A DNA stretch of 50,593 nt, from positions 1-50,593 of the IMG/VR virus record IMGVR_UViG_3300046374_000030, one strand, 5' to 3'. The DNA is from a virus (Duplodnaviria > Caudoviricetes). The translations under genes and the position numbers were made by a program. The notes beneath the pieces were generated by a model. The model made no database searches. It saw only the letters and a list, made by a program, of their open reading frames with translations, and was not told the origin of the DNA. Below, one piece after another: positions 13,048-25,817 of the stretch; the stretch's first letter is position 1; the number at the start of each line of letters is the position of its first letter.

Positions 13048-13269
13048 AGCACGGATGGGAGCGGTTGTGGACGAGCCGCTAGTCGATTACATGGACAAGC
13101 TGCGCCGGATGGCTGAGGGCGCGCTGCGGTCAATCGAGCGTCGCTGCCAGGAGGAGCCGAAGAAAGACCACGAGCGGCAACGGTCCTGGTGGCAGGGCTA
13201 CCGCCAATGCCTCGACGACGTGGAAGACGTCGTCCGCAAACACCAACACCACGAGGAAGGAACCCCTGT

Positions 13270-14439
13270 ATGAGCTTCGCCGAGGACAACGCCAAGGCGT
13301 GGTCTGAGATCACCGAGCTGCACAAGTCGCGGCCCGCCGAGTTCGGGACCATCGAAACCGCCAACGGGCCGGGCGCCACGCTGGCGCAGACCGAGGATCT
13401 GCGCCAGATCCTACCCGAGCTGCTGAAACGCTACGGCATCAAGACGATGCTGGACGTGGGCTGCGGGGATTGGAATTGGATGTCCCACGTTGATTTGACC
13501 GACGTGGAAGGCTACATCGGCTGGGACGTGGAGCCGTCCATGATCGCCGCCGACCAGGAGCACTTCGGGGACGCCCCCAACGTCACGTTCGAGTGTCAAA
13601 GCCTGCTGACCGCCGAGCAGCTGCCCCAGGTCGATCTGATCCTGGCGCGTCACGTGCTGATCCATTTCCCCAACGACGAGATCGCCGCGGTGCTCGACAA
13701 GATGCGCGCGTCGGGCGCGAAATACCTGCTCACGTCGCACTGGCCGGACGAATCCAACGAGGATTACGAGCCGGAAGGCTTCGCGTGGCGCGGCTACATG
13801 GAACGCGCCCTGAACATGGAAGCCCCACCGTTCAAGCTGGGACCGCGGATCGAGACGATCCACGAGCCGGCCGCCGACGCCGGGGTGCTGATGGAAGAAC
13901 ACGAGCTGGCGCTGTTCGAGCTGATCCCGCAGCCCGGTCTCGCCGAGTTCGACTTGCCCGACGAGCCGGCCGACTGGATGCCGCAGGCGCATGTGACGGT
14001 CACCGACCCGGAAACCGGGGTGACACGCATCATGGGTCCCGGTACACGCGGGACGGCACCCGACCCGGATTGTGAGCACACCTCCACCTACCGGGTGCAC
14101 CGCGCGGATGACACCGTCGCCACCGTCTGCTCCGACTGCCAAGGCGAAATCGACTCCAAAGGCGAAGCGGGAGGCGTGTTCTCGTTCCATGACACCATCG
14201 CCCGCTGGGCCGCCGACGTGGAATCCGGCGGGCTGGGCGCCTCCGACAAACCGGCCCGGCATCAGGGCCGCCCCGTCACCCGCAAGGAACTGCTGCGCGG
14301 GCTCAAGCAGAACCACCGCGAGGTGGTGGAGATGGCCCGCAAAGACAACTCACTGGCCTCGGCGTGGCTGCTGCTGGGCGCGCAGGCCGCGGTCATCGAC
14401 GCGGTCCTCGACGAACTACTCGGGGAGCCAGGACCATGA
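13270..14439 (+). CDS. Class I SAM-dependent methyltransferase with C-terminal extension
   Basis: MLDVGCGDWNW motif I, YIGWDV, DLILARHVLIHF. Confidence 0.85.
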   Translation: MSFAEDNAKAWSEITELHKSRPAEFGTIETANGPGATLAQTEDLRQILPELLKRYGIKTMLDVGCGDWNWMSHVDLTDVEGYIGWDVEPSMIAADQEHFGDAPNVTFECQSLLTAEQLPQVDLILARHVLIHFPNDEIAAVLDKMRASGAKYLLTSHWPDESNEDYEPEGFAWRGYMERALNMEAPPFKLGPRIETIHEPAADAGVLMEEHELALFELIPQPGLAEFDLPDEPADWMPQAHVTVTDPETGVTRIMGPGTRGTAPDPDCEHTSTYRVHRADDTVATVCSDCQGEIDSKGEAGGVFSFHDTIARWAADVESGGLGASDKPARHQGRPVTRKELLRGLKQNHREVVEMARKDNSLASAWLLLGAQAAVIDAVLDELLGEPGP

Positions 14440-14652
14440 ACGAGGGCGGGCTGTATTACATCCACGAGCGCATCGACCAGCTGGTGCGCCAGACCGCGTT
14501 GGAGATCGGGCTGCTGCGGATGCGCACCGGGATGGACCGGGACGACACCCGCGAGCAGCAGGAGCACGCTATGCAACTGACCCGGCAGCGGTTCTGGGCC
14601 GCGCAGGACGCCGCGGCCGACAACCACAGCCAGAAGCACCGCGAGGAGCGCG

Positions 14653-15111
14653 ATGTCTAGCGACGACCCGGTCCGCGTTTCAGAGTTGTTGGCGATGCTG
14701 GAAGCCGCTGAGGGGCACCGGGATTCACCGCTGAACCCGCGGCATGTCGAGGAGGTGTTCCAGGCGTGCCTGGCGCACGGCGCGGCGTCGCACCCGACCT
14801 GCACGGTGCAGGGGATCATGCACACCGCCAACTTCGCGATGACCGAGCTGAAGTGCCGCCACGCTGAGATCGCCGGGATGCTGGCGCAGCTGCCTACCGA
14901 GTTCCAGCCGCACGAAACCGGCGGCGGTGGAGGCTGGTCGTTTTTGAACGCCTGCCAGGACAAGGACGGCAACCTGTGGACCGGCGCGCACGTGGTGATG
15001 GAGAAGCTGGTGCTGCTCGGGATCGGCGCCGGGCAGGTCGAATGGTGTCTGCCGCGGGAGATGTGGAGCGCGCTGCCCGGTGAGATGCCATATTTCACGG
15101 TGAAGCTGTGA
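14653..15111 (+). CDS. Phage hypothetical protein (GGGWSFLNAC motif)
   Basis: GAGGAG RBS, 152 aa, GGGWSFLNACQDKDGNLWTG. Confidence 0.75.
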   Translation: MSSDDPVRVSELLAMLEAAEGHRDSPLNPRHVEEVFQACLAHGAASHPTCTVQGIMHTANFAMTELKCRHAEIAGMLAQLPTEFQPHETGGGGGWSFLNACQDKDGNLWTGAHVVMEKLVLLGIGAGQVEWCLPREMWSALPGEMPYFTVKL

Positions 15112-15328
15112 ACGTCACGATCACGCTGCCCGGTGAGGCCAAGGTCAGCGTCGAGTGCACGCTGGAGGAACTGCCGCAGGTTGTGCACGCCGTCAAGTTG
15201 GGCACCCGCGCCTACTATCGGCCACCCAAACCTCCGCCGACCGGCGCGGATGTCGGTGGCGAGTTTTTCGGCATGACGGTCAGCGATTGGCTGAGGCTGC
15301 TGCACAGTCTGGCGAAGCAGTCCGACGC

Positions 15329-15577
15329 ATGACCACGCTGCTGATCGCGCTGCTGTTCGTCGGGCTGCTCAACTTGGCGTTGGTGGGGCTCGTCGTCTAC
15401 GGGCTGGCGAAGCTGCGTGACGACTTCGGGTTCTGGCAGACCGCGCTGTTCCGCATCGAATGGCACACCGACCCGGGCAAGAAAGACAAGCCGGGGCCGT
15501 GGAAAGCTGACCTGCAGAAATGGCTGGACGAGCACCCGGACCGGCCGCATCGCGACGACCCGCCGTTCGTGAGATGA
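15329..15577 (+). CDS. Small membrane protein
   Basis: N-terminal hydrophobic helix LLIALLFVGLLNLALVGLVVYGL. Confidence 0.65.
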   Translation: MTTLLIALLFVGLLNLALVGLVVYGLAKLRDDFGFWQTALFRIEWHTDPGKKDKPGPWKADLQKWLDEHPDRPHRDDPPFVR

Positions 15578-16248
15578 CCATCGCGGTCGGGATCGTCGCG
15601 CATGACTCCCGCGCCGCGACGGCCCGGGCGCTGCGCCGCGACGTCGGGGCGGTGGCGGTCAACGTCGATGACGGCACGCTGGGGTGTGAAGGCAACCACG
15701 TCGCGGTGCTGCGGGCGTTGGCGTACCGGCACGTCGACTGGTGCGTGGTCCTCGAGGACGACGCACAGCCGGTCCACGACTTCCGGTTCCACGTCAAAGC
15801 GGCGCTGGGATGCGCGCCCGCCCCGATCGTCGGGCTGTACCTGGGCTACAGCGAGAACCCCGGGACGGAGCAGCGCACCGGGCAGGCGGTGCACATGGCG
15901 ATGGAGAACAACTGGGCGTGGATCATCGGGGACTGCCTGGTCGGCAGCGTGGGATACGCGGTGCGTATCCGCCTGGTTAAACCGATGCTGGACGCGGTCG
16001 TGCAGGTCGGCTACGAGTTGCCGCTGCGGATCACCAGGTGGGCGCAGGAGGCCGGGGTCGACATCTGCTATACGGTGCCGTCGCTGGTCGATCACGCCGA
16101 CCTGCCGTCCACGGACTGCACGCTGGACGCCCAGGACATGCCGGCCGTCGAGCGTAAGGCCTGGCAGTTCGGCAAGCGAGACAATTGGGACACTCCGGCG
16201 GTGCCGCTGGGCTACTGCCCCGGCTGGAGCAAACCGCGGGGAGGATGA
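15574..16248 (+). CDS. Glycosyltransferase (mycobacteriophage type)
   Basis: IAVGIVAH..R, LGCEGNH, WCVVLEDDA, VGLYLG, YTVPSLVDHAD motifs. Confidence 0.8.
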   Translation: MTIAVGIVAHDSRAATARALRRDVGAVAVNVDDGTLGCEGNHVAVLRALAYRHVDWCVVLEDDAQPVHDFRFHVKAALGCAPAPIVGLYLGYSENPGTEQRTGQAVHMAMENNWAWIIGDCLVGSVGYAVRIRLVKPMLDAVVQVGYELPLRITRWAQEAGVDICYTVPSLVDHADLPSTDCTLDAQDMPAVERKAWQFGKRDNWDTPAVPLGYCPGWSKPRGG

Positions 16249-16251
16249 GAC

Positions 16252-17139
16252 ATGGGAAAGATCCTGCTGCTGATCATCCTGATCCTGGTGATCGTCGCGA
16301 TGATCTACGCCAGACGCATCAAGAAACGCGCTGCGCGCAAGGCGCGGGTCGCGGCGATCAGCGCCCGCGCCGACGCGGAGAACGAGTTGGTTTTGGCCGG
16401 CGACCCGCGCGGCTTCTTCGGCGACTACCCGATACCTGACCTGGGAAAAGAGCCGGGCCACATGAGCGTGGCCGAAGCCGAGCACCTGCTCCATCCCGAT
16501 AGCAGCCCTGACCCGGCCACTTCGCCGCAGGAATGGGAGGACTGGTCGCAGGCCAAGCTCGACCAGCTGCGCCGCCACGAAGCCGCGACGGCGATGGCGG
16601 CCAAAATCAAAGAGTCGGGCGTCCTGGCTGGCCTCACCACCCACGCGTTCACCGTCCCGGTCACGCCCGGCGAATACGACGCGGTGAAGTTCGACAACGG
16701 GCAGATCGTCGAGTTCCCGTCTGTGAGGATGGGCGCCCCCGGCGACATCGTGGTGAACATGAGCGGCAACGTCAACGAGGTCGCGCACCTGAAAAACCCG
16801 GTGCTGCGTCGCCGTGGCGGTGACTTCGTCGAACCGGGCGCCACCGTCGTCACCAACTGGGGCGGAGAGGTGGTGCGCGTCATGCAGGACAAATACAGCG
16901 GAACCCTGACGGTGGCCGAAGCCCAGATGATGATGGAGAAGGCGAAGCAGCAATTCAATTGGGACCAGGCAGCTTCCGTCGCCGCGAGGTACCGGGCGGC
17001 GTCTGCCCGCAAGGTGGACCTGGAACCGCCGCGGCCCCGCAAACCGACCCCGTCCCGTAAGGCGACCCCGTCCCGCAAGCCAGCCAAGCGTGCCGCGGCC
17101 GCCAAGAAACCACCGATCGGAGAAGCCGAAAGTGCATGA
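16252..17139 (+). CDS. Membrane-anchored protein with basic low-complexity C-terminus
   Basis: N-terminal TM helix; ARADAEN..VLAGDPRG.FG.Y motif; tail RKPTPSRKATPSRKPAKRAAAAKK. Confidence 0.7.
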   Translation: MGKILLLIILILVIVAMIYARRIKKRAARKARVAAISARADAENELVLAGDPRGFFGDYPIPDLGKEPGHMSVAEAEHLLHPDSSPDPATSPQEWEDWSQAKLDQLRRHEAATAMAAKIKESGVLAGLTTHAFTVPVTPGEYDAVKFDNGQIVEFPSVRMGAPGDIVVNMSGNVNEVAHLKNPVLRRRGGDFVEPGATVVTNWGGEVVRVMQDKYSGTLTVAEAQMMMEKAKQQFNWDQAASVAARYRAASARKVDLEPPRPRKPTPSRKATPSRKPAKRAAAAKKPPIGEAESA

Positions 17140-17773
17140 GGGAGCATACAAATTCGTCGAACGCATCGCGGGCCAGTTGGAACCGCGGCGAATGGCCGCG
17201 CGGCACGTGATCGAGTTGGGGTCGCGCACCGTCGCCGGGGACTGGCCCTACTCAGGTCCGGTGCGGCCGCTGTTCGAGGGCGCCGCCTACCTGGGTATCG
17301 ACATGCTGCCCGGCCCGAACGTCGACGTGGTCGCCGACGCCGCGACCTGGCCCGACGTCGGCGGCGGCCCGACTGTCGGCACCGTCGACGGGCTGACCGC
17401 TGCGCGCTGGGCCGACGTCGGCGTCGATATCAGCGCCCAACCCGTATCCGTTTCGCAGCGCACCAACGCTGACACCGTGGTGTGCTGCGAAACCCTGGAA
17501 CACGCCCCGGAGGCGGGGGCGATATGCCACAACGCGCACCGGCTGCTGCGAGCTGGCGGGGTGTTCATCTGCACCGCCGCTGGCGAAGGCCGCGCTCCGC
17601 ATTCGGGCATCGACGGCGGCCCGATCCGCGCGGTCGACACCGACGGCAGCCTGGAGTTTTACCGCAACGTGAGCCGTGACGAGCTGCGGGATTGGTTGCT
17701 GCCGTTCGGGTTTGCGCTGATCGACACTTCCAACCCGGGCGACATCTACGCGATCGCGGTCAAACTCAAATGA
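17132..17773 (+). CDS. Class I SAM-dependent methyltransferase
   Basis: VIELGSR, YLGIDMLPGPNVDVVADA, DTVVCCETLEH, LLRAGGVF. Confidence 0.8.
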   Translation: MHEGAYKFVERIAGQLEPRRMAARHVIELGSRTVAGDWPYSGPVRPLFEGAAYLGIDMLPGPNVDVVADAATWPDVGGGPTVGTVDGLTAARWADVGVDISAQPVSVSQRTNADTVVCCETLEHAPEAGAICHNAHRLLRAGGVFICTAAGEGRAPHSGIDGGPIRAVDTDGSLEFYRNVSRDELRDWLLPFGFALIDTSNPGDIYAIAVKLK

Positions 17774-17980
17774 GGATCGCGTGAACCCGCACACCGACAA
17801 CCCGTCCCAATGGGCAGCGGCCGACGACATCGTGGGAGGCTTCGTCAAAGCGTTGCAGCAGCAGCCGATGCCGACGTCGCAGATCGCGATGCAGCTGCTT
17901 GCTCTCGAGCATCCGCAGCGGCTGATGCTGATGGCGATGATCGCCGCCACCGCGCTGCAGCGGCTCGCCGCGGGCGGATC

Positions 17981-18631
17981 ATGATCCCGGTCACCGCGAT
18001 CATGATCGCCTACAACAACGAGGACAAAGCCCTGGTCCGGCTGCAGCGTGATCTGTTGCCCGCGCTGGACGGTCTGGACGCCGAGCTGATCGTCATCGAC
18101 AACAGCGAAACCACGTCGGTCGAGCTCGCCGACGCGCTGATCACCGCGGAAGTTGAGGGCATCCATACCCGGTATCAGTGGCAGCTGGGCAACAACCTGC
18201 TCTACGGGCCCGCGATCAACGCCGCGGTCAAACTCGCCACCCGGCCGTATCTGCTGTACGTGTGCACCAACCACGGATACAGCCGCGACCCCAGCTGGGC
18301 GACCGACCTGCTGACGCCGCTGGTCGACGACGACACCCGCACCGTCGCGATGACCGGCTGCCTGCAGGCCGCCGGGCCGCCGGAAAACCACGGCTTCCCG
18401 GCCAGCCTGCCGCAGATTCATGTGCAGGGCGGGGTGTTCGCGGCGCGCCGCGACGTGCTGCGCGCCTTCCCCTACCCGGACGGCGAGTACGCGCACTGGG
18501 GTGCGGACATCCACGAATGCTTCGCGCTGATGCACGCCGGGTTCCATCTGGTGAACGTGCCGACCATCACATCGGTGTGGCGCCAGGCCGCCGGCAACGG
18601 GCACTGGAAGTACATCCACGATGAGCCATGA
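17981..18631 (+). CDS. GT-A fold glycosyltransferase-like protein
   Basis: VTAIMIAYN, LIVIDNS, NLLYGPAINAA, HVQGGVFAARR, WGAD. Confidence 0.7.
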   Translation: MIPVTAIMIAYNNEDKALVRLQRDLLPALDGLDAELIVIDNSETTSVELADALITAEVEGIHTRYQWQLGNNLLYGPAINAAVKLATRPYLLYVCTNHGYSRDPSWATDLLTPLVDDDTRTVAMTGCLQAAGPPENHGFPASLPQIHVQGGVFAARRDVLRAFPYPDGEYAHWGADIHECFALMHAGFHLVNVPTITSVWRQAAGNGHWKYIHDEP

Positions 18632-18965
18632 CCTGACCGGGGAGGAGTTCGTCGGCTACATCTTCCAAGGCTCACCGGAGCGCAGGCCGAGGCTGTGGTT
18701 CCTCGAGCGCCAGATCAACACGCTGTTCCTCTACGGCCCGCTGAACACCGCGCGCAAACCGGGACAGAACTCGCTCGACCTGGACGTGGGTCTGTGGACA
18801 CTGGAACCCGTCGAACCGCTGGTCTACATGCGGGGACTGATGCGTTACCAGCACCGCGGTCACGAGCGGTGGTCCGCGGTGTGGCGGCTCACCGACACCG
18901 TCATCCCCCACGTCCACACGTTCGGCTACGACGACGTGTGGCGCCTCGGTGTATGGCCCGATTAG
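18621..18965 (+). CDS. Hypothetical protein ending in WPD
   Basis: Overlaps the upstream stop; ends VWRLGVWPD*. Confidence 0.6.
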   Translation: MSHDLTGEEFVGYIFQGSPERRPRLWFLERQINTLFLYGPLNTARKPGQNSLDLDVGLWTLEPVEPLVYMRGLMRYQHRGHERWSAVWRLTDTVIPHVHTFGYDDVWRLGVWPD

Positions 18966-19100
18966 CTTGCCGTAACACGCAATTCAAACTGGTGTGCTAC
19001 AGATAGACACTCGTGACGTTCGCGATGTTCCTCGGCCTTTCGATGCTGGCGGTGCTCAGCACGGTGCTCCTGTTTGTGCTGACGCGGACCGACGGCAACG

Positions 19101-19379
19101 GTGGCGTGGCGTCGGAAGAAAACGACGACGAGCGACCACAATGAAGCCGTGAACAGCCCGAAATGCCCGGAGTGCCCACACCTGGCGCACCAGCACAACC
19201 TCGACGGCGACGGCAAATGCCGCGTCCGTATCCTCACCGGCTGGGACCACCAAACTAACACCTACACGTCGTGGCGGCCCTGCCCGTGCCCGGGCTTTCA
19301 CGGCGAAGCCACCTGCTGCGCCTGCGAATACGTGCCGACCTCACCGAACTGTGTGCACTGCGGCAAGGTGAAAGTGTGA
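19101..19379 (+). CDS. Cys-rich hypothetical protein
   Basis: Several CxxC/CxC motifs. Confidence 0.55.
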   Translation: MAWRRKKTTTSDHNEAVNSPKCPECPHLAHQHNLDGDGKCRVRILTGWDHQTNTYTSWRPCPCPGFHGEATCCACEYVPTSPNCVHCGKVKV

Positions 19380-20149
19380 CCCGCCGCAAACCGCCGGCCA
19401 CGGTGTGCATCCCGTGGCGGCCCAGCCCCTCACGGATGGACGCCTACCACCGGGTGCTGGAGTTCTGGTGGAAAACCGGGTGGCCGGTGATCCCCGCCGA
19501 CTCGGACACCGAAATCTTCTCCCTGTCGCAGGCCCGCAATAACGCTGTCGCGCAAGCGAAAACAGATGTGGTGGTGATCTGTGACGCCGACACCATCCCC
19601 GACATGACCAACATCCGTGCCGCGGTCGCCGACCCGGTCGGGGTGTGCTGGCCGTTCACGAAATACCGGGTTCTGGCGCCGGAATACCTCGACGTGCCGT
19701 TCAAAAAGTTGGCTGACGTGCCCTACCTCTACGAGTGGGGCGGTGACGGCGCGAACGGGGTGGGCGGCTGCCTGGTCGCCACCACCAGGGAATACTGGCG
19801 CCTCGGCGGGCAGGACCCGGCGTTCATCGGCTGGGGGCACGAAGACACCGCGTTCACCTTCGTCGTGGAAACCCTGTCCACGCTGCGCCGCAGCCCCGGC
19901 AACATCTACGCCTTCGAACACAACACGTCGGCGGTCGGTTACACCGGCGCCAAAGCCGACAGCCCCGGCTGGGACCGCGACTACGGCCGCAACGAGGCGC
20001 TGATGGTGCCCTACCGCACCGCGCGGCACCGGGCGTGGCTGATGCGGGAAGTCATCAAAAACCGCACCGGGCAGGACCCGCTGGGCGACGCGCCGAACCG
20101 CGGTGATCCCGAACTGAACAAGGCTCTGCTGGGAAGATACAAACCATGA
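19376..20149 (+). CDS. Glycosyltransferase (GT2/galactosyltransferase-like)
   Basis: VCIPWR, FSLSQARNNAV, VVICDADT (DxD), GGQDPAFIGWGHED. Confidence 0.85.
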   Translation: MTRRKPPATVCIPWRPSPSRMDAYHRVLEFWWKTGWPVIPADSDTEIFSLSQARNNAVAQAKTDVVVICDADTIPDMTNIRAAVADPVGVCWPFTKYRVLAPEYLDVPFKKLADVPYLYEWGGDGANGVGGCLVATTREYWRLGGQDPAFIGWGHEDTAFTFVVETLSTLRRSPGNIYAFEHNTSAVGYTGAKADSPGWDRDYGRNEALMVPYRTARHRAWLMREVIKNRTGQDPLGDAPNRGDPELNKALLGRYKP

Positions 20150-21252: not shown

Positions 21253-21283
21253 GGTGTCCACCAACGGACACCGCCGCTACACT
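21253..21283 (+). promoter_or_regulatory. Promoter of tRNA block 1 with overlapping GGTGTCC-N6-GGACACC operator
   Basis: Palindrome 21253-21272; -10 TACACT 21278-21283, followed 7 nt later by GTG at 21291 (leaderless geometry). Confidence 0.6.
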
Positions 21284-21290
21284 GTGTGAC

Positions 21291-21344
21291 GTGCACGCCC
21301 GCCGATTACTGCGATCACGTTCCTCCTTGCGACTTAGTCGCTAA
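21291..21344 (+). CDS. Leader peptide 1 (MHARRLLRSRSSLRLSR) for the Ser/Leu tRNA block
   Basis: Leu codons TTA, CTG, TTG, CTT and Ser codons TCA, TCC, TCC, AGT; stops 3 nt before tRNA-Ser. Confidence 0.7.
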   Translation: MHARRLLRSRSSLRLSR

Positions 21345-21347
21345 CCA

Positions 21348-21430
21348 GGAGGGTGATCCCGGCCGGGCTGGGGCTTCTCTGCTAAGGAATGCGCGGCATT
21401 GTCCGTGGTGTCCGACTCACCCGCCCTCCG
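21348..21430 (+). tRNA. tRNA-Ser(GCT)
   Basis: Acceptor GGAGGGT/GCCCTCC, loop CT-GCT-AA, long variable arm, atypical T loop. Confidence 0.75.
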
Positions 21431-21434
21431 CTGA

Positions 21435-21521
21435 GGAAGATGAAGCAGTGGCGAGTGCCGCGACCGGCGTCGAATACCGGGTCCGCTTAACCGCGGTGGG
21501 GATCAAGACCTCCGTCTTCCA
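21435..21521 (+). tRNA. tRNA-Ser(CGA), atypical
   Basis: Acceptor GGAAGAT/GTCTTCC, loop GT-CGA-AT, long variable arm, T loop ATCAAGA. Confidence 0.65.
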
Positions 21522-21525
21522 CGAA

Positions 21526-21599
21526 GCCGTCGTAGCCCAACCGGCAGAGGCACTGGTCCCAGAAGCCAGACAGTGCGGGTTCGAATCCCGCGGGCGGCA
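21526..21599 (+). tRNA. tRNA-Leu(CAG)
   Basis: CTGGT-CC-CAG-AA-GCCAG, GGTTCGAATCC, short variable loop. Confidence 0.85.
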
Positions 21600-21600
21600 C

Positions 21601-21674
21601 GCTCCCGTAGTCCAACCGGCAGAGGCAGCGGCATGAGGTGCCGTCCAGTGTGCGTTCGAATCGCACCGGGAGTA
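21601..21674 (+). tRNA. tRNA-Leu(GAG)
   Basis: GCGGC-AT-GAG-GT-GCCGT, TTCGAAT T loop. Confidence 0.85.
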
Positions 21675-21675
21675 C

Positions 21676-21749
21676 GCACCCTTAGCCCAAACGGGAGAGG
21701 CATCCGGCTCAAACCCGGTCCAGTCTCGGTTCGAATCCGAGAGGGTGTA
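21676..21749 (+). tRNA. tRNA-Leu(CAA)
   Basis: CCGG-CT-CAA-AC-CCGG, GGTTCGAATCC. Confidence 0.85.
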
Positions 21750-21750
21750 C

Positions 21751-21823
21751 GCGCTCCTAGCCCAACGGGAGAGGCAGCCGGTTTAAGCCCGGTCCAGTCT
21801 CGGTTCAAATCCGAGGGGGCGCA
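21751..21823 (+). tRNA. tRNA-Leu(TAA)
   Basis: GCCGG-TT-TAA-GC-CCGGT, GGTTCAAATCC. Confidence 0.85.
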
Positions 21824-22218
21824 CCCACCGTCATCTTGTAGGTGCGGATCGCGTCGCTGGAGGCGCGCATCATCAGCACCGCCTCATCGCGGCTGACCGC
21901 CGACCGGTTGCCGCCGACCTGCAACCAGAACTTGTCGGGGATCTGCGGGTGAATCCACACCCGCCAGCGCAGCTCCGGATGGTCAATCGAATGCATCGCG
22001 GCCAGCCAGCGTAACCGCTCCAACGGCGACGCACCCTCGGGGCAGGGCGGCTGGACGGTCGGCCCGTACGCCGGGTCGTCGGGATGAACCCACCGCAGCT
22101 GCGGCGGCTCATACTCGGCCAGCGCCGCGAAGAACGCCTGGTCGTCGCGCCGCGACTGACCCCACCGCTCGTCATCCGGCGCAACGGTCTCCCACTTCAG
22201 GCCCTGCGGTTGTGTCAT
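21805..22218 (-). CDS. Hypothetical protein inserted antisense within the tRNA array
   Basis: ATG at 22218 (MTQPQGLKWE...), 137 aa; stop lies antisense to the T arm of tRNA-Leu(TAA). Confidence 0.6.
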   Translation of the reverse strand: MTQPQGLKWETVAPDDERWGQSRRDDQAFFAALAEYEPPQLRWVHPDDPAYGPTVQPPCPEGASPLERLRWLAAMHSIDHPELRWRVWIHPQIPDKFWLQVGGNRSAVSRDEAVLMMRASSDAIRTYKMTVGAPPRI

Positions 22219-22222
22219 GCGT

Positions 22223-22423
22223 TTAGGCGACGCTGATGGAGCTGGCGGTGGTGGTGACGTTGCTTTCCCAGTGGTCTCCGCTGGTGACGCCTGAGACGCT
22301 TTTGAGCCAGTTGTGCAGTTGCAGCACGGTGCAGGGTGTGGTGAGTGCGGGGTGAGTGACGGGCCGGTGGGCCAGTTGTTCGGCGCTGGCTTTTTCTTCG
22401 GGCATGGGGTCATCATCGCCCAC
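22223..22423 (-). CDS. Small hypothetical protein in the same insert
   Basis: 66-aa ORF ending 4 nt before the next ATG. Confidence 0.5.
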   Translation of the reverse strand: MGDDDPMPEEKASAEQLAHRPVTHPALTTPCTVLQLHNWLKSVSGVTSGDHWESNVTTTASSISVA

Positions 22424-22498
22424 GGTGGATGTTGTGGGGTTGCGGCGCGCCGTGTCCTAGACGATGCAGCGTTCCACCCGGCGGCTCAGCAAACCCGA

Positions 22499-22527
22499 CA
22501 GTCTCGGTTCAAATCCGAGGGGCGCAC
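22499..22527 (+). repeat. Copy of the tRNA-Leu(TAA) 3' half (att-like direct repeat or tRNA remnant)
   Basis: CAGTCTCGGTTCAAATCCGAGGGGCGCAC matches 21795-21824 except for one missing G. Confidence 0.8.
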
Positions 22528-22542
22528 GCTACAATGACCACC

Positions 22543-22578
22543 ATGTTCTTCGCCCCACGACCGTATCCCTGGCGCTAG
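22543..22578 (+). CDS. Leader peptide 2 (MFFAPRPYPWR) for the Pro/Trp/Tyr tRNA block
   Basis: -10 TACAAT at 22530-22535, ATG 7 nt later; codons CCA, CCG, CCC, TAT, TGG. Confidence 0.7.
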   Translation: MFFAPRPYPWR

Positions 22579-22611
22579 CCGCCCGGTCGTGACAACACGC
22601 CCGGGATCAAA

Positions 22612-22685
22612 CCGGGTGTAGGCCAACTTGGTAGGCCACCTGCTTTGGGAGCAGGAGACTGGGCGTTCGAATCGCTCCTCCCGGA
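22612..22685 (+). tRNA. tRNA-Pro(TGG)
   Basis: CCTGC-TT-TGG-GA-GCAGG, GTTCGAATC. Confidence 0.85.
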
Positions 22686-22689
22686 CGAA

Positions 22690-22761
22690 GGGGACTTCGC
22701 CAAGTGGGAAGGCAGCGGCTTCCAAACCCGCCACGACTGGGTTCGATTCCTAGAGTCCTCG
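22690..22761 (+). tRNA. tRNA-Trp(CCA)
   Basis: GCGGC-TT-CCA-AA-CCCGC, GGTTCGATTCC, G73. Confidence 0.8.
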
Positions 22762-22762
22762 C

Positions 22763-22843
22763 GCCGGCACATCCCATGTGGTGAGGGAAGCAGACTGTAA
22801 ATCTGTGGCTTCGGCTGTGTAGGTTCGACCCCTGCTGCCGGTA
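22763..22843 (+). tRNA. tRNA-Tyr(GTA)
   Basis: GCAGA-CT-GTA-AA-TCTGT, variable arm GGCTTCGGCT. Confidence 0.85.
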
Positions 22844-23032
22844 CGATCAGCGCAGCAGAGATGGGCGCCTGCCACGCGGCCCGGCTACGATTCCTGGGCT
22901 TCACCGTGATCCCTCGTCGGGGAGATGCCCACCCGGTACGATCAACGAGCAGAGATGGGCGCCTGCCATTGAAAGCCAGCCGGGTAACCGTGACGTGGTC
23001 GTAGGTGATCCCCCAGCGGGGAGACGCCCGCC
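22838..23032 (+). repeat. Tandem duplicated promoter/leader unit, each copy starting ATG-GGC-GCC-TGC-CAY
   Basis: Two units of about 95 bp: CCGGTACGATCA..AGCAGAGATGGGCGCCTGCCA...GTGATCCC..GGGGAGA(T/C)GCCC. Confidence 0.8.
22955..22972 (+). CDS. Leader peptide 3 (MGACH) for the Cys/His/Gly/Ala tRNAs
   Basis: ATG GGC GCC TGC CAT TGA downstream of TACGAT (22937-22942). Confidence 0.6.
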   Translation: MGACH

Positions 23033-23085
23033 TACGAAAAATGGGTGGACCGAACGCGGGCCAACCGTTTACCGTGGTACACAGT

Positions 23086-23156
23086 GCGCTGGTGACCGAG
23101 TGGTCAGGTGGCAGGCTGCAAACCTGTTCAGGCTGGTTCGATTCCAGTCCGGCGCT
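23086..23156 (+). tRNA. tRNA-Cys(GCA)
   Basis: GCAGG-CT-GCA-AA-CCTGT, U73. Confidence 0.9.
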
Positions 23157-23157
23157 C

Positions 23158-23235
23158 GGTAGTCGTAGCTCAATGCGGCAGAGCGCCGGGATGTGGCCCC
23201 GGAGGTTGAGGGTTCGGACCCCTTCGATTACCCCA
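23158..23235 (+). tRNA. tRNA-His(GTG)
   Basis: CCGGG-AT-GTG-GC-CCCGG, G-1/C73, encoded CCA. Confidence 0.9.
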
Positions 23236-23306
23236 GCGGGTGTGGCGTAGTGGCCGCGCACCAGACTTCCAATCTGGCAACGCAGGTTCGATTCCTGTCA
23301 TCCGCT
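23236..23306 (+). tRNA. tRNA-Gly(TCC)
   Basis: CCAGA-CT-TCC-AA-TCTGG, U73. Confidence 0.9.
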
Positions 23307-23385
23307 CGACATCGCCCTCGTGGTCGCCAGAGGAGTAAGGCTGGTCAATCCGCGTAAAGCCGAGGCGAAGCTAATATCGGCACCT

Positions 23386-23458
23386 GGGGTTGTAGCTCAG
23401 CTGGTAGAGCGCCTGCCTTGCAAGCAGGAGGCCCGGGGTTCGATTCCCCGCTGCTCCA
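23386..23458 (+). tRNA. tRNA-Ala(TGC)
   Basis: CCTGC-CT-TGC-AA-GCAGG, G3:U70. Confidence 0.92.
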
Positions 23459-23459
23459 C

Positions 23460-23532
23460 GCCTTGATAGCTCAGTTGGTAGAGCGCCCGCCTGAAGAGTG
23501 GGAGGCCCGAGGTTCGATCCCTCGTCCTGGCA
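23460..23532 (+). tRNA. tRNA-Phe(GAA)
   Basis: CCCGC-CT-GAA-GA-GTGGG. Confidence 0.9.
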
Positions 23533-23536
23533 CTTG

Positions 23537-23608
23537 GCCCTGCTAGCTCAATGGGAGAGCGTCCGTTTCACACGCGGAAGGCACGAGGATCGTAACCTCG
23601 GTGGGGCA
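23537..23608 (+). tRNA. tRNA-Val(CAC)
   Basis: TCCGT-TT-CAC-AC-GCGGA, T loop ATCGTAA. Confidence 0.85.
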
Positions 23609-23609
23609 C

Positions 23610-23681
23610 GTCCTGTTAGCTCAGCGGCAGAGCGCCGGCACGACACGCCGGAGGCCCGAAGTTCGATCCTTCGACGGGACA
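23610..23681 (+). tRNA. tRNA-Val(GAC)
   Basis: CCGGC-AC-GAC-AC-GCCGG (C33). Confidence 0.85.
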
Positions 23682-23682
23682 C

Positions 23683-23751
23683 ATGATGCGAACGCGAACC
23701 GATCAGGGGCGGCGAAAGCCGACACGTCGCCCTGATTCCGCGCGTCCGTAG
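23683..23751 (+). CDS. Leader peptide 4 (MMRTRTDQGRRKPTRRPDSARP) for the Lys/Thr/Gly/Asp tRNAs
   Basis: ATG 1 nt after tRNA-Val; codons ACG, ACC, ACA, AAG, GAT x2, GGG; stop inside tRNA-Lys (nt 8-10). Confidence 0.6.
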   Translation: MMRTRTDQGRRKPTRRPDSARP

Positions 23752-23817
23752 CTCAGTCGGTAGAGCTGTTGCCTCTTAAGCATCAGGTCGAAGGTTCGAT
23801 CCCTTCCGGGCGCACCA
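23742..23817 (+). tRNA. tRNA-Lys(CTT)
   Basis: Loop CT-CTT-AA, encoded CCA. Confidence 0.9.
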
Positions 23818-23818
23818 G

Positions 23819-23893
23819 GCCGTTGTCGCACACGTTGGCTTGTGCACCTGCCTTGTAAGCAGACTTACGCGGGTTCGATTCCTGTCAGCGGCT
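23819..23893 (+). tRNA. tRNA-Thr(TGT)
   Basis: CTGC-CT-TGT-AA-GCAG, GGTTCGATTCC. Confidence 0.85.
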
Positions 23894-23941
23894 CGTTATG
23901 ATAAGCGCATCAGCGAAGCGCACCACGAAGGAAAGGCGATC

Positions 23942-24163
23942 ATGTCGCAGGAACAAGAGCAGGAAACGGCCAGCGCCGAGCAGCGACTGGAAGCCGACCC
24001 GGCGCTGGAGCCCGAGCTGGCGCACGAGCGCGACGAAGGTGCGGCCGAAGCAGCCGAAACCGCAGCCGAGGACGCGGCGTACTCCGGTTCCGGTGCGCTG
24101 TCGGCGTCCGCGGTCGCGGGCGCGGACGACGAAGCCGCGGACGAGGCCGCTGAGGACGCGTAG
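23942..24163 (+). CDS. Small highly acidic, Ala/Glu-rich protein
   Basis: GAAGGAAAGG RBS; MSQEQEQETA...DEAADEAAEDA, 73 aa. Confidence 0.7.
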   Translation: MSQEQEQETASAEQRLEADPALEPELAHERDEGAAEAAETAAEDAAYSGSGALSASAVAGADDEAADEAAEDA

Positions 24164-24193
24164 CTTGTCAGACCGTCGCCTTAAAGTTCGGGT

Positions 24194-24553
24194 GTGGCAA
24201 TCAGCCAAGCCAAAAAGACGCAGCAAGCCCGCTGGAGAAATGAGAACCGCACGTTCCTACGTCAGATCAATCGCAAACGACGCCTAGCGATCAAAGGTGA
24301 AGCTCTCGATCACTATGGATGGGAATGTGCGGAGTGCGGATTCGACAACCCAATGGCTCTCGTCATAGATCACGTCGATGACAACGGTGCGGATGAGCGG
24401 AGGGATTTAGGCGGGCGGCATTATGCGGGCTGGAACTTCTACAGCTACCTGAAGCGCCTCGGCTGGCCGGAGGGATATCAGACGCTTTGCGCGAACTGTA
24501 ACATGATCAAACAGCAGCTCAGGCTGCAAGGCACCTGTGGTCTAGCGGTATGA
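24194..24553 (+). CDS. HNH endonuclease
   Basis: CAECG...LVIDHVDDNG...YQTLCANCN; stop overlaps tRNA-Gly(GCC). Confidence 0.85.
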   Translation: MAISQAKKTQQARWRNENRTFLRQINRKRRLAIKGEALDHYGWECAECGFDNPMALVIDHVDDNGADERRDLGGRHYAGWNFYSYLKRLGWPEGYQTLCANCNMIKQQLRLQGTCGLAV

Positions 24554-24602
24554 CACCTGCTTGCCATGCAGGAGATCGCGGGTTCGATTCCCGTCGGGTG
24601 CT
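24531..24602 (+). tRNA. tRNA-Gly(GCC)
   Basis: CCTGC-TT-GCC-AT-GCAGG, U73. Confidence 0.9.
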
Positions 24603-24603
24603 C

Positions 24604-24616
24604 GTTGTTTGATAAC
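24604..24616 (+). promoter_or_regulatory. BoxA-like antitermination element
   Basis: GTTGTTTGATAAC resembles the mycobacterial rrn BoxA (GTTGTTTGAGAAC) and sits in an AT-rich tRNA spacer. Confidence 0.5.
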
Positions 24617-24629
24617 AACTAAACATCAT

Positions 24630-24701
24630 GGCTCTGTAGCTCAGTGGTAGAGCGCCGGCCCGTCAAGCCGGAGGTCGAGGGATCGTTCCCCTTCAGGGTC
24701 G
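24630..24701 (+). tRNA. tRNA-Asp(GTC)
   Basis: CCGGC-CC-GTC-AA-GCCGG (C33), G73, T loop ATCGTTC. Confidence 0.85.
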
Positions 24702-24702
24702 C

Positions 24703-24750
24703 ATGTTGATACGGGCGCGACGAATTAGGCAGCGGCGACAAAGCCGCTGA
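24703..24750 (+). CDS. Leader peptide 5 (MLIRARRIRQRRQSR) for the Ile/Arg/Arg/Arg/Gln tRNAs
   Basis: ATG 1 nt after tRNA-Asp; 11 of 14 codons after the start are Ile, Arg or Gln. Confidence 0.7.
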   Translation: MLIRARRIRQRRQSR

Positions 24751-24759
24751 TTTCGTCAT

Positions 24760-24831
24760 GCCCGTCTAGCTCACCGGTAGAGCACCGATCTGATAAGTCG
24801 TAGGCACCAGGTTCAATTCCTGGGTCGGGCA
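24760..24831 (+). tRNA. tRNA-Ile(GAT)
   Basis: CGAT-CT-GAT-AA-GTCG, GGTTCAATTCC. Confidence 0.85.
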
Positions 24832-24832
24832 C

Positions 24833-24907
24833 GCCTTCATAGCTCAGTCTGGACAGAGCACCGGTCTACGGAGCCGGGTGTCGCAGGTTCGAATCCTGCT
24901 GGGGGCA
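24833..24907 (+). tRNA. tRNA-Arg(ACG)
   Basis: CCGGT-CT-ACG-GA-GCCGG. Confidence 0.9.
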
Positions 24908-24908
24908 C

Positions 24909-25005
24909 GCCGCTGTGGCTGAACGGATAAGCGCCCGCCTCCTAAGCGGGTTAGGCAACCGGCTTCTACCCGGTGAATATGCAGGTTCGAATCCTGTCAG
25001 CGGCA
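24909..25005 (+). tRNA. tRNA-Arg(CCT) with a 30-nt variable region
   Basis: CCCGC-CT-CCT-AA-GCGGG; variable region 24951-24980. Confidence 0.8.
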
Positions 25006-25008
25006 CAA

Positions 25009-25079
25009 GCCTTCGCCAGCGGATCTGGCCCTGAGTTTCCGAAGCTCGGCGTGCGGTGGTTCGACTCCACTCGGGGGCA
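25009..25079 (+). tRNA. tRNA-Arg(CCG), atypical D arm
   Basis: CTGAGT-TT-CCG-AA-GCTCGG, GGTTCGACTCC; no U8/N9 linker. Confidence 0.7.
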
Positions 25080-25083
25080 CTGG

Positions 25084-25156
25084 TGAGCCGTTGGGTAACT
25101 GGCATCCCGCCGCGCTTTGGTCGCGGATATTGCACGTTCGAATCGTGCCGGCTCAG
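25084..25156 (+). tRNA. tRNA-Gln(TTG)
   Basis: U1:A72, CCGCG-CT-TTG-GT-CGCGG, G73. Confidence 0.85.
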
Positions 25157-25167
25157 CTATGCTGCTT

Positions 25168-25189
25168 GGGTGTCCATTCGCGGACACCC
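25168..25189. promoter_or_regulatory. Palindromic operator-like site GGGTGTCC-N6-GGACACCC
   Basis: Same half-sites and 6-nt spacer as the sites at 11642, 21253 and 37147. Confidence 0.55.
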
Positions 25190-25210
25190 CGAGCACGGAA
25201 GGAGCCTGAG

Positions 25211-25270
25211 ATGCGACAGCACAAACCGGAGCCTGAACGCATGAATCAGGCGTCCGTAGCTCAGCGGTAG
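25211..25270 (+). CDS. Leader peptide 6 (MRQHKPEPERMNQASVAQR) for the Lys/Glu/Glu/Asn/Gln/Met tRNAs
   Basis: RBS GGAAGGAG at 25197-25204; codons AAA, GAG, GAA, ATG, AAT, CAG; runs into tRNA-Lys. Confidence 0.7.
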   Translation: MRQHKPEPERMNQASVAQR

Positions 25271-25321
25271 AGCTGTTGCCTTTTAAGCATCAGGTCGGGG
25301 GTTCGATCCCCTCCGGGCGCA
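25250..25321 (+). tRNA. tRNA-Lys(TTT)
   Basis: Loop CT-TTT-AA; near-identical to tRNA-Lys(CTT). Confidence 0.9.
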
Positions 25322-25325
25322 CGCT

Positions 25326-25397
25326 GGTCCCATGAGGTAGCGGCTAGCCTGCGAGATTTTCACTCTCGTCGTTCGGGTTCGATTCCCGGTGGGACTG
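25326..25397 (+). tRNA. tRNA-Glu(TTC)
   Basis: CGAGA-TT-TTC-AC-TCTCG. Confidence 0.88.
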
Positions 25398-25412
25398 CGG
25401 AGGCGCGTTGTG

Positions 25413-25523
25413 ATGAAACGGCTCAAAGCTTTGCTGCGGCCGCACCTGTATTCGCTTTGGCGATGGACGTGGGCCGAGGACGAAGACGACGACGAAGACG
25501 ACGACGAAGCTGGATTGGTGTAA
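25413..25523 (+). CDS. 36-aa peptide with an acidic run between the two tRNA-Glu genes
   Basis: GGAGG RBS; MKRLKALLRPHLYSLWRWTWAEDEDDDEDDDEAGLV; stop inside tRNA-Glu(CTC). Confidence 0.5.
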   Translation: MKRLKALLRPHLYSLWRWTWAEDEDDDEDDDEAGLV

Positions 25524-25580
25524 CCGGGAGCACAGCGGATTCTCAGTCCGCCAGCGCGGGTTCGAGCCCCGTATCCAGTG
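25509..25580 (+). tRNA. tRNA-Glu(CTC)
   Basis: GCGGA-TT-CTC-AG-TCCGC. Confidence 0.88.
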
Positions 25581-25584
25581 CTGA

Positions 25585-25657
25585 TGGTCTGTAGCACAAC
25601 CGGCAGTGCGCTCGGCTGTTAACCGAGTGGTTGAAGGTTCGAATCCTTCCAGGCCAG
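25585..25657 (+). tRNA. tRNA-Asn(GTT)
   Basis: CTCGG-CT-GTT-AA-CCGAG, G73. Confidence 0.92.
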
Positions 25658-25661
25658 CGAA

Positions 25662-25733
25662 TGAGGTGTGGTCCAACCGGCACGACTCTGGGTTCTGGTC
25701 CCGGCAATCTAGGTTCAAATCCTGGCACCTCAG
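25662..25733 (+). tRNA. tRNA-Gln(CTG)
   Basis: U1:A72, CTGGG-TT-CTG-GT-CCCGG. Confidence 0.88.
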
Positions 25734-25737
25734 CGGA

Positions 25738-25813
25738 TGCAGGGTAGGGAAGTCTGGTCTATCCCTGCGGCCTCATAAGCCGTAAATCGCGGGTTCGAAT
25801 CCCGCCCCTGCAA
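25738..25813 (+). tRNA. tRNA-Met(CAT), initiator versus elongator uncertain
   Basis: GCGGC-CT-CAT-AA-GCCGT; fMet-like T arm, but paired U1:A72 and no full GGG/CCC run. Confidence 0.85.
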
Positions 25814-25817
25814 CGAG

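Follow-up and report, generated by a model that had tools for sequence, protein, structure and literature searches.

A candidate ribosome-sensing leader before the Pro-Trp-Tyr block of a phage tRNA array

In a leader-peptide transcription attenuator such as trpL of E. coli, stalling of the ribosome promotes the ON helix, and its arrival at the stop codon promotes the OFF helix. Attenuators of the trp type, such as that of M. tuberculosis ilvB1 (PMC13236596), combine product-related codons in a short ORF with mutually exclusive helices and the sensing of several amino acids, and in these respects resemble the leader described here. They differ from it in that its fourth pairing segment is the 5' strand of a tRNA with no U-tract, the regulated genes are tRNAs and not enzymes, and the codons are single for each tRNA and not in runs. 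The leader is also like the mycobacterial polycysteine leaderless small-ORF attenuators of the Ms5788A type (10.1101/834739), with which it shares an ATG or GTG leaderless start (predicted in the present case) and the host group; in those attenuators a stalled ribosome blocks a sequestering helix and no terminator is needed, which is the logic proposed here. They mask a Shine-Dalgarno (SD) sequence and use runs of Cys codons, whereas here the masked element would be an acceptor-stem strand and the downstream gene is tRNA-Pro. The Pro leader thus belongs to neither class, falling outside the trp type on the terminator and outside the Ms5788A type on SD sequestration.

Why phages should have tRNA arrays has been asked for a long time (PMC10264068). 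In the cyanobacterial inducible L-arrays (trn operon, PMC8421152) a spare tRNA array is likewise induced by ribosome trouble, whereas control in the present array appears to be block by block and codon-specific; the text of that report contains neither "leader" nor "attenuat". A likely purpose is shared with phage tRNAs that counter tRNA-cleaving defences (PMC10264068, PMC11555353). The former analyses the same cluster C1 arrays as are considered below and does not use "leader", "attenuat" or "promoter"; the latter reports a strong promoter and not a sensor. Among open PMC and bioRxiv papers, none was found on leader-peptide control of tRNA genes or on tRNA folding as the output of an attenuator.

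The leader ORF and its setting

The window, meaning the whole stretch of 50,593 nt that was analysed, is a 50.6-kb phage contig with terminase, portal, head and tail genes. Its host is probably an actinobacterium, since its phage terminase shares ~50% identity with the terminases of mycobacteriophages Hilltopfarm, Typha and prophiT37-1. ARAGORN located 28 tRNA genes in 21526-25814. Three further ones, missed at default thresholds, are tRNA-Ser(gct) (21348-21432) and a tRNA-Arg(ccg)-like gene (about 25009-25080), both found by eye, and tRNA-Ser(cga) (about 21435-21520), found at a lower ARAGORN score. Related haplotypes of the array are referred to as L001, L003 and L006. The leader studied here precedes the Pro-Trp-Tyr block and comprises the following features.

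22477-22528, + strand: degenerate tRNA-Leu copy (3' part), immediately upstream of the promoter
22530-22535, + strand: -10 hexamer TACAAT of a predicted leaderless promoter; the start codon follows after 7 nt
22543-22578, + strand: leader ORF, MFFAPRPYPWR and stop, with codons read by tRNA-Pro(tgg), -Tyr(gta) and -Trp(cca)
22556-22563, + strand: segment 1, on CCA-CGA-CCG; pairs with segment 2
22582-22591, + strand: segment 2; pairs with segment 1, with segment 3 or, in the window and L001 only, with 22657-22665 of tRNA-Pro
22596-22605, + strand: segment 3, the anti-tRNA strand; pairs with segment 2 or with nt 1-8 of tRNA-Pro
22612-22619, + strand: segment 4, nt 1-8 of tRNA-Pro (5' strand of the acceptor stem); no U-tract after it
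22612-22686, + strand: tRNA-Pro(tgg) by ARAGORN and Rfam, with a U6·U67 mismatch in the acceptor stem; CCA not encoded
22690-22762, + strand: tRNA-Trp(cca) by ARAGORN and Rfam
22763-22844, + strand: tRNA-Tyr(gta) by ARAGORN and Rfam

The MFFAPRPYPWR ORF is placed directly before tRNA-Pro, -Trp and -Tyr and holds cognate codons for all of them (3/3; P=0.008 by nucleotide shuffle, P=0.013 by CDS codons), one per tRNA and without runs. Its start is most likely the ATG at 22543; a start at 22534 was rejected because that upstream ATG is missing in L001. The spacing between a -10 hexamer and its start site is 6-7 nt. TANNNT hexamers of differing sequence sit 6-7 nt upstream in L001, L003 and clusters C1 and C2, in all copies examined, and in mycobacteria it is enough for translation that an ATG or GTG stands at +1 (PMC4633059). 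The leader had no Rfam match, at gathering score or at E up to 1, to any leader or riboswitch family, T-box and amino-acid leaders included.

Several other elements of the array were recorded. Between tRNA-Leu(taa) and the degenerate tRNA-Leu copy lie ~700 bp (21826-22528) with minus-strand ORFs that had no Pfam or PHROG match. This stretch is absent in L003, where an intact tRNA-Leu(taa) stands at the place of the degenerate copy, and is present in L001 without the tRNA-Leu copy and with another -10 hexamer; it looks like an insertion into a tRNA gene. Two near-repeats with hairpins (22845-23040), absent from L001 and L003, separate tRNA-Tyr from the Cys promoter. More TANNNT hexamers, with no codon-matched leader, occur at 23070-23086 before tRNA-Cys and at 23898-23903 before the Gly(gcc) region, and the blocks behind them seem to be driven directly. 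An HNH endonuclease gene with its own TANNNT and GTG start lies within the array (24194-24553), and a methyltransferase/glycosyltransferase gene cluster lies upstream of it (13189-20149). At 24909-25006 a tRNA-like gene that ARAGORN cannot assign folds with two anticodon-like stem-loops, CCT and TCT (both Arg); a separate tRNA-Arg(tct) is present in relatives and absent from the window.

Pairing segments and ribosome position

The sequence-only reading had described a four-segment attenuator ending in the 5' strand of tRNA-Pro, and the pairings it gave were all recovered. The 1:2 pairing, claimed to be perfect, is so, 22556-22563 being the exact reverse complement of 22584-22591; the 3:4 pairing of 22597-22604 with 22612-22619 consists of seven Watson-Crick pairs and one G·U; the 2:3 pairing of 22582-22591 with 22596-22605 holds at 9/10 positions around an ACAA loop; and both ARAGORN and Rfam set nt 1 of tRNA-Pro at 22612. 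As modelled, the three helices are mutually exclusive. The minimum free energy (MFE) structure of 22530-22619 is exactly 1:2 plus 3:4 (-32.7 kcal/mol, z -2.4; 3/200 shuffles as good), and with segment 4 removed it becomes 2:3 (z -0.6; 51/200 shuffles as good). In 20,000 dinucleotide shuffles of the 69-nt leader, over windows chosen after the segments had been seen, the energies of 1:2, 2:3 and 3:4 were reached singly 986, 148 and 411 times, all three together 0/20,000 times and 75% of each together 76/20,000 times. Under a looser three-helix cut-off applied to natural sequence, 9/123 tRNA calls preceded by a spacer passed; 3/9 were copies of this leader, leaving 6/120 among the others. In the window and L001, segment 2 has an additional partner that the sequence-only reading missed, the T-stem stretch 22657-22665 of tRNA-Pro. 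When duplexes with other tRNAs were ranked, the Pro leader took rank 1 of 29 in the window and L001, and most sister leaders were weak.

Sequestration of tRNA nt 1-8 was predicted at -6.6 to -14.8 kcal/mol for 17 family leaders vs -0.3 to -9.4 kcal/mol for 14 control spacers, and the energy was reached by at most 6/100 shuffles for 11/17 family leaders vs 0/14 controls. For three C1 Pro leaders it was matched by 49-58/100 shuffles and so was not beyond chance. Full-length folds of the free state set leaders and controls less clearly apart, the acceptor-stem value being below 0.1 for 11/17 leaders vs 7/14 controls (Mann-Whitney p=0.006, with non-independent rows). No U-tract follows 3:4, nor any of the five anti-tRNA helices found in the array, and a terminator scan made no call here. 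Mycobacterial RNA polymerase needs a U-tract for intrinsic termination and did not terminate without one even with NusA and NusG (PMC3993855). An intrinsic terminator at 3:4 was rejected for want of the U-tract.

Ribosome positions were modelled by masking the RNA up to 12-15 nt from the P-site codon, a choice consistent with the 26-nt footprint of PMC13236596. In this geometry a ribosome on codons 4-11 frees 2:3, and one at the stop codon covers segment 2. A sharp switch was predicted for L003: its acceptor stem stood at 0.00 in the free RNA, rose to 0.89-0.92 while codons 3-10 occupied the A site, and fell to 0.22 at codon 11 and to 0.00 at the stop. Similar behaviour was predicted for the Ser leaders of ET08 and Myrna, each with four segments of its own of which the last is the 5' strand of tRNA-Ser (0.00 free, 0.64-0.98 with a ribosome and 0.01 at the stop in ET08; 0.08, 0.34-0.99 and 0.01 in Myrna); in nascent RNA the tRNA strand of the cluster C Ser leaders was still held at every ribosome position (0.56-0.97).

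In the window, masking of segment 1 brought 2:3 to 0.99-1.00 before segment 4 is made, and nascent RNA including segment 4 gave 2:3 at 0.29-0.94 with the ribosome at codons 4-11. At full-length equilibrium the acceptor stem of the window and L001 was at 0.00 at every ribosome position, which in the window arises because segment 2 also pairs with tRNA-Pro 22657-22665. The ON and OFF hairpins barely differ in energy (-15.3 vs -15.2), and passing from 2:3 to 3:4 means crossing a barrier of 11.3 kcal/mol. Relative to the MFE, the ON state costs 7.1-7.5 kcal/mol when a ribosome is present and 11.5 when it is not. The folding model omits tertiary contacts, so the window copy would need kinetic capture or tertiary energy to switch. 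The proposal that a stall forms 2:3 and releases the tRNA was supported by the models of L003 and the ET08 and Myrna Ser leaders, but not by that of the window's full-length RNA, where masking segment 1 still leaves the cloverleaf 7.1-7.5 kcal/mol above the MFE. A stall on Pro, Tyr and Trp codons would agree with the cognate codons of a conserved ORF, although any stall on codons 4-11 would suffice. The Pro leaders of cluster C do not fit the switch: in C1 the acceptor stem was at 0.00 at the Trp and Tyr codons (3/3), and in C2 it was at 0.81 without any ribosome (2/2).

Codons for Trp and Tyr point to control of the block as a whole, yet clamping tRNA-Pro alone does not stop the next two tRNAs, and RNase P can process a polycistronic precursor tRNA by tRNA (PMC2190699). 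A domino-like refolding from each tRNA to the next was rejected by a junction rank test, in which adjacent junctions in three family arrays paired no better than others (mean rank 0.48-0.57); because no domino was found, sequestration of tRNA-Pro fails to explain the Trp and Tyr codons. Folds of whole blocks hint at a domino for the Lys/Thr and Ile/Arg blocks and are uninformative for Pro-Trp-Tyr, whose tRNAs do not fold even without the leader.

Sister leaders, codon index and relatives

Five leaders were found in the window, before blocks of Ser/Leu, Pro/Trp/Tyr, Lys/Thr, Ile/Arg/Gln and Lys/Glu/Asn/Gln/Met tRNAs. Besides the Pro/Trp/Tyr leader they are as follows.

21278-21344, + strand: sister leader 1, a -10 hexamer, 7 nt and a leaderless ORF with Leu and Ser codons (21291-21344); before Ser, Ser and four Leu tRNAs
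23683-23751, + strand: sister leader 3, an ORF before Lys(ctt) and Thr(tgt)
24703-24750, + strand: sister leader 4, an Ile/Arg/Gln ORF before Ile, Arg, Arg, Arg and Gln
25211-25270, + strand: sister leader 5, an SD-led ORF with Lys, Glu, Glu, Asn, Gln and Met codons; reads into tRNA-Lys(ttt)

Anti-tRNA helices are predicted in all five leader types; that of leader 1 involves the 5' strand of tRNA-Ser. The Lys/Thr and Lys-Met leaders read into the tRNA itself, the stop codon of the Lys/Thr ORF being nt 8-10 of tRNA-Lys in the window, L001 and L003 (spacers of 59, 62 and 59 nt). Leaders 3 and 4 (window 23683 and 24703; L001 3876 and 4686) start right after the discriminator base of the upstream tRNA plus C, and there is an SD-like run inside the acceptor strand of that tRNA; 3' processing of the upstream tRNA could create a near-leaderless mRNA for both.

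For 21/22 block tRNAs, in blocks delimited by hand and with two tRNAs and one anticodon assigned by eye, a readable codon is present in the tRNA's own leader, the sole miss being Ser(cga). The true assignment of leaders to blocks was the best of 120 permutations (21/22; next best 17, mean 7.4). Left out of the 22 were nine tRNA genes, Cys-His-Gly-Ala-Phe-Val-Val, Gly(gcc) and Asp, for which no leader was found in the window. A rule-based scan of 14 array stretches returned 15 leaderless short ORFs, representing about three lineages by two leader types, and 13/15 hold all the amino acids of the next three tRNA calls. The Arg/Gln leader has Ile codons only where tRNA-Ile follows (window vs L001, L003 and L006). 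CGA codons occur in every leader.

The Pro leader ORF is identical to that of L003 (36/36 nt) and nearly so to that of L001 (35/36), where it follows a different hexamer. Elsewhere L003 is less alike (tRNA-Pro 53/74, tRNA-Trp 45/73, upstream 30 nt 21/30, terminase 84%). Its changes spare 1:2, being located in the 2:3 loop and at the 2:3 mismatch, and 3:4 is re-formed in a shifted register (8/9) against an altered tRNA 5' strand; among the three sequences no pair had changed on both sides.

A leaderless ORF with Pro, Trp and Tyr codons precedes the same three tRNAs in 7/7 cluster C1 and 2/2 cluster C2 records examined; 209 records match the ET08 stretch. Of the 23 RNA runs listed for a C1 copy, each has a share of 0.07 or less. 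The layout of promoter, ORF and codons is common to C1 and C2 despite unrelated flanks, and the Ser/Leu leader is homologous to leaders of ET08, Myrna and Phabba. The C2 Pro leaders (Myrna L175, 3164-3332; Phabba L177, 4713-4881) have a spacer of 91-94 nt with two long conserved hairpins, and their ORF contains a 6-nt stretch complementary to its own, differently starting tRNA-Pro. Viral scans for further relatives yielded only L001, L003-type and partial L006 haplotypes; in one of these scans 3/7 matches were copies of known haplotypes and 4/7 unrelated. A metagenome scan, which was too loose, gave one real copy, of L003 type, among 120 loci, and a genome scan gave two matches, neither with a tRNA call on the + strand. 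Cluster M phages Bongo and Estes and plasmid pCBMA213_1 have no matching leaderless leader (Bongo has one non-matching ORF).

Competing explanations and proposed mechanism

That the leader senses the ribosome is, in our judgement, very probable; whether the tRNA fold is its switch is about an even call. The trp-type logic of the sequence-only reading, 1:2 and 3:4 against 2:3 with tRNA folding in place of a terminator, keeps its geometry, its missing U-tract and the anti-tRNA helices of the sister leaders, but lacks a covarying pair and is not followed by the C1 Pro leaders at Trp and Tyr codons. Sensing might instead act through Rho, with a stalled ribosome hiding the C-rich leader, a released one letting Rho load, and the tRNA pairing secondary. 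Such a route would explain the polar control implied by the Trp and Tyr codons, and would suit both a leader with 27 C vs 17 G in 69 nt and no U-tract and the C1 and C2 Pro leaders that retain the codons without a clear tRNA switch. It is nonetheless unlikely: at 69 nt the leader is small for the loading of Rho, most of it is predicted to be paired when free, and every one of the five leader types has anti-tRNA helices, of which types Lys/Thr and Lys-Met read into the tRNA. A little less probable still is that the ORF is translated and the helices merely delay or chaperone folding of the pre-tRNA, being reset by each passing ribosome, so that output tracks general translation and not shortage. 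While a ribosome anywhere on codons 4-11 favours 2:3, the ON and OFF hairpins have almost the same energy and CGA codons occur in every leader, all as this account would have it, it leaves unexplained both the one-to-one codon index (21/22, a diagonal matrix) and the restriction of Ile codons to leaders that tRNA-Ile follows.

Ordinary transcription attenuation, with segment 3 and the tRNA 5' strand acting as an atypical intrinsic terminator or pause hairpin, is quite improbable. It would share the classical 1:2 / 2:3 / 3:4 geometry, and in Myrna a comparable hairpin, with a pyrimidine run behind it, lies upstream of tRNA-Pro; that run is weaker in Phabba, however, and the lack of U-tracts after all five helices, the silent terminator scan and the behaviour of the mycobacterial polymerase (PMC3993855) stand against it. 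Least credible of all is that a GC-rich spacer produced the pairings by chance, with an ORF that is only incidental. The sequence is 65% GC, the looser three-helix cut-off is met by 6/120 other tRNA calls, and only three family haplotypes are available, whose identity could be explained by exchange of small segments; against this weigh the shuffles (0/20,000 with all three helices), the codon index and the recurrence of the promoter-ORF-codon layout in C1 and C2 with unrelated flanks.

The ORF and the segments are observed, as are their conservation and the matching of codons to tRNAs in five leaders; from these we read, at a probability of roughly 0.5, a ribosome-sensing attenuator in which the OFF state (1:2 plus 3:4) would hold the tRNA misfolded and the ON state (2:3) would let it fold and be cut out. 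Transcription would start from TACAAT and MFFAPRPYPWR would be translated leaderless. The ribosome would stall when Pro, Tyr or Trp tRNA is short, and a ribosome slowed on codons 4-11 would allow 2:3 to be captured co-transcriptionally before segment 4 appears, after which tRNA-Pro could fold and be released by RNase P. In the absence of a stalled ribosome, 1:2 plus 3:4 is predicted to keep tRNA-Pro misfolded. For tRNA-Trp and tRNA-Tyr a second, polar step would be needed, which is the least certain part; our guess is that failure of the first cloverleaf would lead to Rho-dependent termination or to decay of the precursor. More tentatively, and at somewhat less than even confidence, actinobacterial phages may in general run terminator-free attenuators of this kind: the mini-ORF of each block would list its codons, the position of the ribosome would decide whether the first tRNA folds for RNase P or is clamped or invaded by the ribosome (with U8-A9-G10 as the stop codon), and a failed cloverleaf would shut the block.

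Cluster C phages, which can be grown on M. smegmatis mc2 155, carry unannotated homologues of these leaders, and the question is therefore directly testable. If the reading is true, ribosome-mediated attenuation, with termination and SD masking as its outputs, would gain tRNA maturation as a third. A codon-indexed sensor for each block would make the arrays an on-demand response to slow decoding and not a constitutive supplement, and the phage would sense the depletion of particular host tRNAs and provide just these.
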